Shown: positions 53,070-63,319 of the stretch, piece by piece
Layout of the letters: each line of letters opens with the position of its first letter
How positions within the stretch are numbered: the first letter of the stretch is position 1
DNA from: Raja brachyura
Taxonomy: Eukaryota
Reading direction: 5' to 3'
NCBI GenBank assembly: GCA_963514005.1
Contig: OY740813.1
Coordinates: forward strand, 20,894,001 to 20,958,000
Length of the DNA: 64,000 bases
Position numbers and translations under genes: made by a program
The notes under the pieces: model-generated
What the model was told of the DNA's origin: nothing
Seen by the model: the letters and a program-made list of their open reading frames with translations, nothing else
Database searches by the model: none

Positions 53070-53273
<204 letters not shown>

Positions 53274-57880: not shown

Positions 57881-58910
57881 CAATAATGCAACCATACAGC
57901 TCAACAGAGACAGTTCATAGCAGATAAGAAATCCGCCAATAAAAGTGAACACGAAGGTAGAAAGTAAAATTCTTTAAAATCCAAGAGCAATACTTAGGAT
58001 TGCAATAAATTCTCTGGAATCAAGCCGTTTTAAAAATTACTTTTTATGTCAAGATATAATCCAAATGTCACGAAATGCTGCAGGCTCACTTTCAGCTTTG
58101 TATATTGTTTATATAATCCAGTGATTTCTCATTTGGTGCGCTGAGATTGAGTTCTGCTATATAATGAAAGTAGTTGTTTAGACAACTCATTCCAATTCCA
58201 ATACTTAGAATTCATATATATCATAATTTTATGAAAATTAATCAAGCTTTTCAGTGTACTCATTTATACTAAAGAAATTTGAACATAGAACAGTAAAGCA
58301 CAAGAATTTGCCTTTCAGCCCACAATGTTTGTGCCGAACATGATGCCGAGTTAAACAAATTTTACCTGTATGTACATGATTTGTGTCCTTCCAATCCCTG
58401 CGTATCCATGTGCCTATCCATAAACCTTTTAAATGCCACTATCATATCTACCACTACCACCGGTAGCATGTTCCAGGAACCCACCACCCTCTGGGTAGTA
58501 AAAGACTTGCCCCATACATCTCCTTTAAACTTTGGTCCCCTCACCTGAAAGCTATGCCCTCCAGTCTTTGACATTTACACCCTGAGGAAAAAGGTTCTGA
58601 CTGTCTACGCTATCTATGCCTCTTGCAATTTTATACAGGCACTCCCCGACTTACAGAAGGGTTATGTCCTGTAAACCTTATGCAACTCAGATTATACACC
58701 AGTTAGAATCACCTTAAAACTAGGTAGAAACAAGGAAATGCAAATGCTGGTTAAAACACAAAATGACACAAAGTGCTGGAATAACAGCAGGTCAGGCAGT
58801 ATCTCTGGAGAACATGGATAGGTGATGTTTCAGATTGGGACCCATGTTCAGACTGATTCATTTACTTGCTGAGTTACTCCTACACTTTGTGTCGTTTCAC
58901 CTTTAAACAA

Positions 58911-59047
58911 GGTACTGGTGCCACTGGTCTGCACCTGCGAGTCCCTCTTCATTAGCGGCCGCACCATCCGTTTGACATGGCTATCACTGTGCCTCATGTT
59001 GTAGCCCCTGGCCGACAGCACTTTTCTTAGGCTGCCGCCACTGACAG
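58911..59047 (-). pseudogene. decayed histone H1 globular-domain fragment
   Basis: VSGGSLRKVLSARGYNMRHSDSHVKRMVRPLMKRDSQVQTSGTS aligns without gaps to the H1 consensus [44 protein letters not shown]. Confidence 0.65.
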
Positions 59048-59211
59048 GACGTGCATGAGACACTTTCCCCTCTCACCTCCTGCTTCTCTTCGGAGTCACC
59101 AATATCTTCCACATTGGCATCTTCCACCTTAGGTGGTGAAGGTGGAAGCAGCGGGATGGACAAAGTGATGGCTGACAGGGAGAGGTGGCAGCAGGAGAGA
59201 GGTGAGGGAGC

Positions 59212-59347
59212 CCCATGGTGACCCAGTGTATTCTGTCAGTGGTGGCTGCCTGAAGCGCTGTCAGCCAGTGGCTACAATGTGAGCCGCAACAACAGCCGCG
59301 TGAACTGGACAGTGTGGCAGCTGGTAAAGAAGAGCTCACTGGTGCAC
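59212..59347 (+). pseudogene. second decayed histone H1 globular-domain fragment
   Basis: PMVTQCILSVVAA(fs)ALSASGYNVSRNNSRVNWTVWQLVKKSSLVH versus H1 [31 protein letters not shown]. Confidence 0.7.
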
Positions 59348-61160
59348 TTTGTGGAAGATGTCGGCGACTCATTTGTTCTCCACCGACTCACTCGCCTTCC
59401 CAGTGTCACACTGACAGTGACCCAAACTGGAAGAGTAGCAAGCCCAGACGATGCTTTTACATCTATGAAGCCATCCTCCTGCTGCCAAAAGTGTGTTTCT
59501 CACTTTTATTAAACCATTGAATCATAGCGAAACCCACCCACCCACCTTGATAAGCATGCTGGGTCCTGCCTTAATGGCTACAAAGCATCCAAAGCCCAGG
59601 CTTGGCTGCACTTGCCCATCTTCCACCCAATTGCAATTTAAAATTTCCGATTCAAAGTAGTCGCTAAGGAATAGGTTTCAGGGAGAGGCAGTGGTTTCTC
59701 CATTTAGATTGTTTTGAAATGATTCTATAAACGTGGCTGTAATAACACAAGTCATTCGGGAAACGGACCCACCGGTTGTGAACCGTTTACATAAGAACGA
59801 GTTAACATAAGTCACCTACCACGTAAGTTGGAGATTGCTTGTATACTATAATCTATCTAATTTTCCCTAAGAGGAAACTACTGTCGATAAGTACCACAGA
59901 GAAAGGAATAGAAGGATATACAGATGTAGTGGATGAAAGGAGCGAGTAGATCAAACCAAAAGCATTTATCAGTTGGGTTGAATGGCCCATTCCTGTCCCT
60001 GTGTAATAACAATATATATTTGTAACTAATAGCATAGAGTGAAACAGCATGAGAAGTTCCGATGTTTCAGATGCAGCAGAATCTGAGTTCTGAGAATAAA
60101 CTTTAACACTGACTGTAGTAAAAGGATGTTCAACAGCTGGAATAACTGCCCAGAAAGGGTTGTGAGGCAAGCACAATGCATTCAACAAAGATTTGTTATT
60201 AGAAAATGGGTCAACAGGTAATTTGGATAGATGAACACAGCGCGCCCAATCAGCTGAACCTAATTTGTGCACATTTATTTCACTGATGAATGTGTAGACT
60301 TGGTGTAGGAGTGAAAATATTATTATAGGCTTATTCATTTTGTGCCATACATTTTTATATACACATTACAGTTCCAGTAAATTAAAATTAATAATCCTTA
60401 CAGAAATGTTTTTCTTCAAAATATGTTTTGTTCAGGATGGTGGAGAGGGTATTGATGAACCAAATAACTGTGTTATGATTTGTGACGGTGCTGAGCAAGG
60501 AACATGTGGCTATAAAGAATATTAACAGCTTCAAGATGGATGACAGAATTAAATTTAGTATTAAAAACTTCAACTTTGACACTTCTCAAAAAGACCCTGC
60601 AACAAGGTAAGCCTCTGAAAGAGGAAAGTGGCTGTGGGTAAATATTTTCACTCCCCAAACTACATTCAGAGGTTTTCTGCTTGCAATCTACTTGTAGACG
60701 GTCAGGGAGATCTCTGAGATGCAAAGAGGTTTTGCTGCAATTGTACAAAGCTTTGGTTAGAATGGAACTTTAGTTTTGTACGAAGTTATGATCTCCTTAT
60801 ATAAGGAAAGATGTTCTCTCACAATGGTACAGCAAAGGTTCATCAGATTTCTATGATTACAAGATCAACAGAGATTGAGATGGGGTCAATTGGGCACATA
60901 AGTTTGAAGAAGGATTCTGACCAAAAACGTCACCTCCCATGTTCTGCAGAGACACTGCCTGATCCGCTGGGTTATTCCAAAGGACCAATTTCATGCTGCA
61001 TGACTCTGAGGACTTGTGGTTACAATCTAAGCATGGACCTAAGCCACATCTAAGATGGATAGAATTTTTTTCACTTAGAATGTGGTGCACCTCGAGAATT
61101 CTCCACCACAAAAAGGAGTTTGAGCCAAGGTATATTCAAGAGGTGCGGCACAGTGGCCAG

Positions 61161-62431: not shown

Positions 62432-62478
62432 CTGCCATGGTGGTAGTCCCCGACGTAGCTGCTGCCCGTGTACTCCAT
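62432..62478 (-). CDS. MORN5: MORN5 exon 1
   Basis: gccatcATGG Kozak context. Encodes MEYTGSSYVGDYHHGR, then AG|gtagtt. The five exons join in frame to 546 nt (181 aa). Confidence 0.94.
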
Positions 62479-62914: not shown

Positions 62915-63126
62915 ATGACCGCGGTCGAGTTACCGACGCTGCAGGAGCTGAACGTGCAGGAGGTCAACGTGTCCTCGGCCGTGCTGAAGGCGGCGGCTCA
63001 CCACTACGGCTCGCAGTGCGACAAAGCCAACAAGGAGTTCATGCTGTGCCGCTGGGAGGAGAAGGACCCGCGCCGCTGCCTGTCCGAGGGCCGCAAGGTC
63101 AACCAGTGCGCGCTCGACTTCTTCAG
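62915..63126 (+). CDS. NDUFA8: NADH:ubiquinone oxidoreductase subunit A8, first coding exon (gene continues beyond the window)
   Basis: gccgccATG. Encodes [71 protein letters not shown] with twin CX9C motifs; donor TTCAG|gtaccc. Confidence 0.96.
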
Positions 63127-63319
63127 GTACCCGAGCCCGGGGATGTGTACAGCGCAGGCCGCGGCCAAGCCAATGGGCTGGATCTGGCAGAGCCCGGAGT
63201 TTGCACTCCCGCTGCCCTGGGGTGTTAGTGCCTTGCACATGCGGGATTCGGGCAACATCACAGGGGTGTCTACATATGCAGCAATCTCGAGCGGAATACA
63301 GAGTACTGGAGTAACATTG

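Follow-up and report, generated by a model that had tools for sequence, protein, structure and literature searches.

A non-autonomous Tigger/pogo-type element in MORN5 intron 1 of Raja brachyura and its histone H1-derived inverted repeat

Gene fragments carried by DNA transposons

Maize Mu killer is a promoter-driven inverted repeat of a piece of its target gene, present in few copies and with siRNA output. Among animals, the accessible part of a survey of 100 genomes describes four multicopy cases of Pack-TIRs, among them some with three and five copies, and reports no case from elephant shark (PMC8277862). Culex Helentron-Cq-32A carries fragments of H4 and H1 (H15) in eight copies, the H1 piece measuring 87 bp (PMC4067079, accessible part). 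For fragments captured in maize, the donor genes are siRNA targets, and the less constrained ones may pseudogenise (10.1101/777037, accessible part). Drosophila hpRNAs target protamine-derived genes (PMC10317233, accessible part).

We describe a transposon family of which one copy lies in a 64,000-nt stretch of Raja brachyura DNA (contig OY740813.1, positions 20,894,001 to 20,958,000; the window). Like the Pack-TIRs, as far as PMC8277862 presents them, the family holds host sequence, a GC-rich 5' gene piece, between Tc1/mariner-type TIRs, its donor lies far from the copies, and transposition with target-site duplications recurred after the capture; the template-switch-then-transpose (FoSTeST) model of that survey fits it as well. 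As to a parental copy, paralogs are intact on contig C32, and the closest donor is intact in another skate and a remnant here. Unlike the Pack-TIRs of that account, the H1 family numbers hundreds to thousands of copies; its captured piece is duplicated in inverted orientation and has a putative promoter of its own, its cassette is present in two TIR families, and the same gene clade was captured a second time. On what the survey sets out, the family fits its multicopy Pack-TIR class. Helentron-Cq-32A likewise shows a broken linker-histone fragment amplified by a DNA transposon, but it is rolling-circle, and the accessible part of PMC4067079 describes no inverted duplication or promoter. As in maize Pack-MULE and Helitron capture, the captured fragments could direct silencing at the donor, although the maize conflict concerns plant RNA-directed methylation and is backed by data (10.1101/777037, accessible part), whereas the skate H1 case is predicted from sequence. 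Drosophila Nmy, Tmy and hp-tHMG offer the closest parallel in design, a promoter-driven inverted repeat of a target piece, the target being a chromatin-packaging gene or a derivative; these are few-copy loci with shown siRNA output in the accessible text (PMC10317233), whereas the H1 cassette is mobile, high-copy, decayed in its arms and known to us as DNA sequence.

Anatomy of the window copy

The element and the neighboring exons of its host gene comprise the following parts, in window coordinates.

58634..58655, plus strand: left TIR (TIR type 1, starting CAGGCACTCCC) with its TA target-site duplication; at <=1 mismatch it has 225 hits in the genome, versus 0 for the control
58656..58723, plus strand: left subterminal segment A, by eye like the end of the decayed DDE_1-coding Tigger elements L158, L166 and L173
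58724..58897, no strand: segment B, part of a genomic repeat of very high copy number; it contains a short fold-back and occurs in both TIR families
58900..59120, minus strand: left arm, an H1 5' coding piece with an N-tail remnant, ...VLSVAA, the 34-nt deletion and then the globular domain as far as QTSG
59121..59148, no strand: hairpin apex (CTTCCACCTT / AAGGTGGAAG)
59149..59347, plus strand: right arm, a second copy of the same H1 piece, stopping at GSLV
59348..59470, minus strand: segment F, putative captured H1 5' UTR and core promoter, pointing into the hairpin
59471..59737, minus strand: segment G, marker of a longer subfamily; 23 matches genome-wide, the window included
59738..59821, plus strand: right subterminal segment H
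59822..59843, minus strand: right TIR with its TA target-site duplication; contigs from three other organisms span this junction
62432..62478, minus strand: first coding exon of the host gene, MORN5, followed by the intron in which the element sits
53073..53220, minus strand: MORN5 second coding exon; residues 17-64 of MORN5 chains 9fqr_Xu and 9d2f_I; Pfam MORN

Non-autonomous Tigger/pogo elements have short TIRs of about 20-30 bp that start with CAG. The window copy is bounded by TA at 58634-58635 and 59842-59843, just where a first-pass annotation of the sequence had placed the TIRs and their flanks; its left and right 22-mers, TA included, differ at 5 positions, and in the majority of 30 elements the TIRs are 26 bp long and match at 88%. 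The same ends were found again in other copies, and TA stands before 47 of the 59 TIR hits of type 1. The element has no transposase of its own, and its copies are many and dispersed. The Tigger/pogo-type label given to 58634-59843 is supported by L158, a 2.0-kb DDE_1 element, now decayed, whose TIRs are related (3 and 5 mismatches of 22) and whose subterminal motif is similar. It was the best match among the 30 of 49 DDE_1 loci fetched, which included no autonomous element with exactly the window's TIR and no transposase partner for the second TIR family described below.

The location in MORN5 intron 1 was likewise confirmed, about 3 kb from exon 1 and more than 5 kb from exon 2. MORN5 stands head to head with NDUFA8, whose exon 1 lies at 62915-63127 (plus strand), and a LIM-domain exon, which we take to be LHX6, at 3141-3350 (plus strand); the order of LHX6, NDUFA8 and MORN5 is presumably that of the human arrangement. 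A short-period tandem repeat at 16477-16932 produces open frames on the minus strand. Insertion of the element is indicated by its target-site duplications and the dispersal of the copies; no empty orthologous MORN5 site was seen among the joints listed for relatives. The stretch 58634-59843 is thus one old, TA-flanked copy of a non-autonomous Tigger/pogo-type element.

What are the two H1-like fragments within it? They had been described as homologous and divergent, on the minus and the plus strand, and 94 nt of them are complementary at 70%. BLASTP of the window peptides against the chondrichthyan H1 variant XP_078280407.1 gave 24/45 identities (E 4e-12) and 25/34 (E 1e-14), and the DNA shares 79-84% identity with H1 genes that are intact on contig C32. 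The Pfam Linker_histone scan that the annotation had proposed as a check returned no hit for any of four window peptides. All four sister-copy peptides, picked because they already matched Linker_histone in a prior scan, exceeded the cut-off at 22.9-24.8 bits, and donor-clade H1 genes pass that of PF00538. Given the BLASTP matches and the passing sister copies, the missing hit is not a refutation, and the H1-type identity of both fragments stands. The homology reaches past the fragments first marked out, through N-tail codons to the apex on one side and into promoter and 5' UTR-like sequence (about 59350-59470) on the other; the arms span the N-tail (EDVGDSGGG, GVDKA) via PTVTERVLSVAA to the wing, and the globular part of the 30-element majority is 89-92% identical to the intact genes L037 and L038. 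We give virtually no credence to a chance likeness, for which the missing Pfam hit might speak, or to the reverse direction, in which the genes would derive from transposon sequence. Chance is refuted by the BLASTP scores, by the sister copies and by the pieces of the majority peptide, which agree with XP_078280407.1 at 36/40, 12/12 and 11/18 residues, the best among 42 proteins; the reverse is refuted by a gene clade intact from sharks to rays, while all arms are frameshifted. The window arms, of which the left has additional internal deletions, are non-coding H1 derivatives and no H1 gene.

The short inverted repeat noticed earlier is the apex of a long predicted hairpin. Folding predictions gave -229 kcal/mol for the minus strand (z -10.2) and -228 kcal/mol for the plus strand (z -8.3), with 0/100 shuffles as stable in either case. 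In the column majority of 30 elements, self-complementarity reaches 92.8% over 513 columns, and the majority cassette is predicted to fold into 248 pairs with helices of 77 and 57 bp. This long, hpRNA-like inverted-repeat anatomy is present in the family majority and decayed in the window copy, whose longest perfect helix is 15 bp and whose arms are about 69% alike. Among 91 arms, 12 do not span the 34-nt deletion site; 60 of the 79 that do carry exactly this deletion, none is an undeleted precursor, and in none of five apparent exceptions inspected is the segment intact. A deletion common to the arms points to a single capture that was deleted, then duplicated, then amplified. The first-pass annotation had proposed a second, independent gene capture within the window: a captured H1 sequence and its Tigger/pogo carrier are indeed there, but the capture did not take place at the MORN5 locus. 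The two H1 pieces are one capture duplicated, apparently with its promoter, and the MORN5 copy is one of at least hundreds that were transposed. At L065:1408-2942, a variant palindrome takes in segment B on both sides before segment F and the TIR.

Based on alignment, an H1 promoter and 5' UTR, overlooked before, are part of the element. When segment F is read on the minus strand, it matches three H1 genes, L037, L038 and L040, over their TATA region and 5' UTR (scores 38-57; 0/500 shuffles each); there was no such homology in four other H1 genes, L025 was marginal (23/500 shuffles), and L029 lay outside the comparison. A TATA-like site at 59454-59466 is altered in the window copy, the family majority reading GATATAAAAG. 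A transcript starting in segment F would run through the UTR, the antisense arm and then the sense arm. Segment G contains AAACACA at 59492-59498, and the family majority has a GC box upstream of TATA; we take the former to be the H1 'AC box' and the latter likewise to be an H1 promoter label. By these motifs alone, segment G is likely the upstream promoter of the donor; it had no match, as gene upstream or coding piece, in 33 H1 loci or in 30 kb around the donor remnant. The captured sequence reaches upstream of the TATA box; for this reason a retro-copy origin was rejected, and the capture was from DNA, not RNA.

Segment B has a contig depth of about 2 million, versus about 24 for unique flank, and its presence in both TIR families implies that it was acquired before amplification. 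The core of its majority, CTGAAGA...GAAAC, presumably resembles Penelope-type minimal hammerheads; a hammerhead ribozyme was rejected, Rfam giving none in the window or in six copies, and only sub-threshold hairpin families.

Family size and repeated H1 capture

A genome-wide search with the interior, also suggested at the outset, recovered other TIR-bounded copies with the H1 cassette. The best 40 of 853 candidates scored yielded 90 matches. We gathered 77 loci, 17 of them duplicates; among the remaining 60, 31 are two-armed, all of them divergent, and 29 one-armed. The copies lie on many contigs, with differing flanks and the common 34-nt deletion. A 22-nt arm motif had 687 hits genome-wide at <=1 mismatch (control 0). 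As 41/91 arms of a biased set, or 2/18 of an independent set that includes partial arms, pass the motif, we estimate about 1,500-6,000 arms. The cassette thus occurs at hundreds of sites, likely over a thousand. Twelve of the 225 TIR hits were fetched: three hold parts of the cassette, and six (L122, L125, L126, L128, L129 and L130) are 300-680-bp elements with the window's TIR and different interiors. Our literature searches, which took in PMC5753468, gave no account of an H1-hairpin family; Repbase and Dfam, outside their scope, may catalogue the repeat.

The cassette of segment B and both arms also lies between unrelated TIRs (TIR2, CAGTAAACCCTCG...), in elements of about 950 bp (L012, L057, L069, L078, L087, L107, L181, L188 and others), where it is 90% identical over 767 columns and lacks the promoter. 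TA precedes 24/33 TIR2 hits. This family accounts for 16/20 motif-selected loci and for 33/96 loci overall, versus 52 of the window's type. The two families have similar divergence (12.4% and 11.1% at non-CpG sites, p 0.06), and overall the copies diverge by 11-14% at such sites. With donor promoter sequence found only in the window's type, the cassette was likely transferred from that type to TIR2.

A third Tigger type, with L158-like ends, carries sequence from the modern H1 paralogs, namely their promoter, UTR and N-tail, undeleted, to GISLAA. It was found at nine dispersed loci, 92% identical to their own majority: L120/L198 (G000:C6:83182074-83183015), L199-L202, L204, L205, L207 and L208. 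This capture from H1 paralogs is independent of the first. It stops beside the 34-nt deletion seen in the first capture, at that deletion's 3' end.

Donor gene, proposed history and meaning

On current sequence comparisons, the closest donor is the Arg-enriched variant XP_078280407.1 (P0010 below). The cassette groups with it in a tree (support 95/76, on 52 columns only), within a well-supported chondrichthyan clade. Donor-clade tails contain 11-20% K and 14-31% R, versus 33-39% K and 1-4% R in canonical H1. The earlier hint, from Arg in place of Lys, at a sperm-type, protamine-like source holds insofar as these tails are richer in Arg than canonical H1; 'protamine-like' is too strong for P0010, whose tail has about as much K (16%) as R (14%), the paralog L037 reaching 31% R. 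P0010 itself is the intact gene of a softnose skate. In this assembly no intact ortholog was found among the best 150 of 988 candidates, the best being paralogs at 46-49%, and in the protein collection the P0010 tail matches only itself, though Amblyraja and Leucoraja paralogs are included. A frameshifted remnant of the donor tail was located at C32:33831625-33831912; its scores in two frames are 107 and 127, versus <=61 for seven other tails. A search of 30 kb around it with arm and promoter models for the donor head or promoter gave only a paralog-type pseudogene head 2.7 kb off. At this locus (L237, C32:33831625-33834841), two halves of H1 pseudogenes thus stand in opposite orientation, with 2.7 kb between them and the head cut at LVQ. 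Intact here are the paralogs L037 and L038 (89-92% identical to the arms) and L040 (about 80%). An intronless cluster of H1 variants with Arg-enriched tails occupies C32:35.09-35.69 Mb (L025, L028, L037, L038, L040, L081), with a further member on C25 (L027). These variants are candidates for the H1-derived sperm proteins of cartilaginous fish; no paper on the cluster or on expression of the donor clade was found in the literature.

We propose, with good confidence, that a non-autonomous Tigger/pogo family with an H1 promoter, UTR and inverted 5' coding half arose by one capture, spread in trans and is now a relic. The H1 piece, recognized by its homology, would have been taken up from DNA by template switching. 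The 34-nt frameshifting deletion and a small N-tail deletion, both common to the arms, would have come next, and a fold-back duplication would then have created the roughly 250-bp near-perfect inverted repeat, probably primed by the short GAAGATGTCGGCGAC motif that flanks the apex on both sides and recurs at the arm/UTR joint. With transposase likely supplied in trans, amplification would have led to about a thousand or more copies, by extrapolation from the hundreds observed. The cassette of segment B and both arms, without the promoter, would later have passed to the second TIR family, which shares it. Insertion into MORN5 intron 1 predates the split from three related organisms, in whose contigs the right junction is bridged (the left also in one), and ordinary decay would have followed.

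Arm-to-arm identity in 29 two-armed copies is 71.2% within and 71.1% between copies (p 0.59), derived changes shared by the arms (122/5053 sites versus 2.5% by permutation) are not above permutation, and changes that keep a wobble pair are not favored on either strand (p 0.33); all three tests for selection on arm pairing were thus negative. They average 29-30 copies of perhaps thousands, so a few functional copies, or effects when the family was young, remain compatible with them. The window copy is CpG depleted, and in two relatives its arm region differs at 26/432 and 26/414 letters (6.0-6.3%), versus 4.3-5.6% in neighboring DNA. No exon-exon joints in sequencing runs were among the joints listed. 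The suggestion that the arms could pair as dsRNA in MORN5 pre-mRNA is borne out in silico, but not as pairing that has been maintained, given the 15-bp helix and arms conserved no better than the flanks. It is very improbable that the copy was co-opted, with a hairpin in MORN5 pre-mRNA tuning splicing, editing or small-RNA output. Its place in intron 1, its fixation in related organisms and the predicted minus-strand fold (z -10) would suit such a role; yet the plus strand folds as well, the arms are only about 69% alike, both exons are kilobases away, and the TATA-like site is altered. An old, fixed, neutrally decaying copy is the best reading.

A different role for the family when young, as a producer of hairpin RNA, is unlikely but deserves weighing. 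Copies with about 250 bp of dsRNA would have yielded small RNAs that silenced the donor H1, which was then lost. The putative promoter points into the hairpin, and the majority cassette is predicted to form its long helices; in the TIR2 family, however, which makes up most motif-selected loci, the promoter is absent, and pairing bears no trace of selection. The donor's present state, a frameshifted tail without an intact ortholog found here and without a partner in the protein collection, would agree with such a loss, but the softnose skate ortholog is intact, assembly or annotation gaps could conceal an intact donor, and the H1 cluster is unstable anyway (pseudogenes L081 and L084). Maize capture siRNAs (10.1101/777037) and Drosophila hpRNAs (PMC10317233), in the parts accessible, would provide analogies. 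Three paralogs close to the arms nevertheless remain intact in this genome. That young copies once silenced the donor is possible: it fits the donor loss, and the intact paralogs and the promoter-less family weigh against it. We are equally doubtful of the fuller version, a mobile hairpin-RNA gene with a stolen germline H1 promoter and a 250-bp inverted repeat that, in a thousand or more copies, silenced its donor, the donor then disappearing from this skate lineage and its paralogs taking over. If true, the repeated captures by three Tigger types would mark the H1 gene as a hot spot in transposase-active germ cells, and the family would show, in a vertebrate, a host gene removed by RNA silencing of transposon origin.

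What is the relevance of the relic family that we favor? Its scale, promoter-plus-hairpin design, cassette exchange and repeated capture are unusual, and tests for present function came out negative. In practical terms, it will yield false 'histone H1' matches in skate annotation. According to the accessible part of PMC8277862, multicopy gene capture by cut-and-paste transposons is rare in animals and yields few copies; here one capture reached at least hundreds of sites. The movement of the cassette between two TIR families, together with a second capture of the same clade, opens capture bias and cassette exchange to direct study. If hairpin small RNAs ever acted on the donor, the family would allow the capture-silencing conflict known from plants to be tested in a vertebrate. 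An H1 variant seemingly lost from this assembly is also preserved in its copies, as promoter and 5' half.
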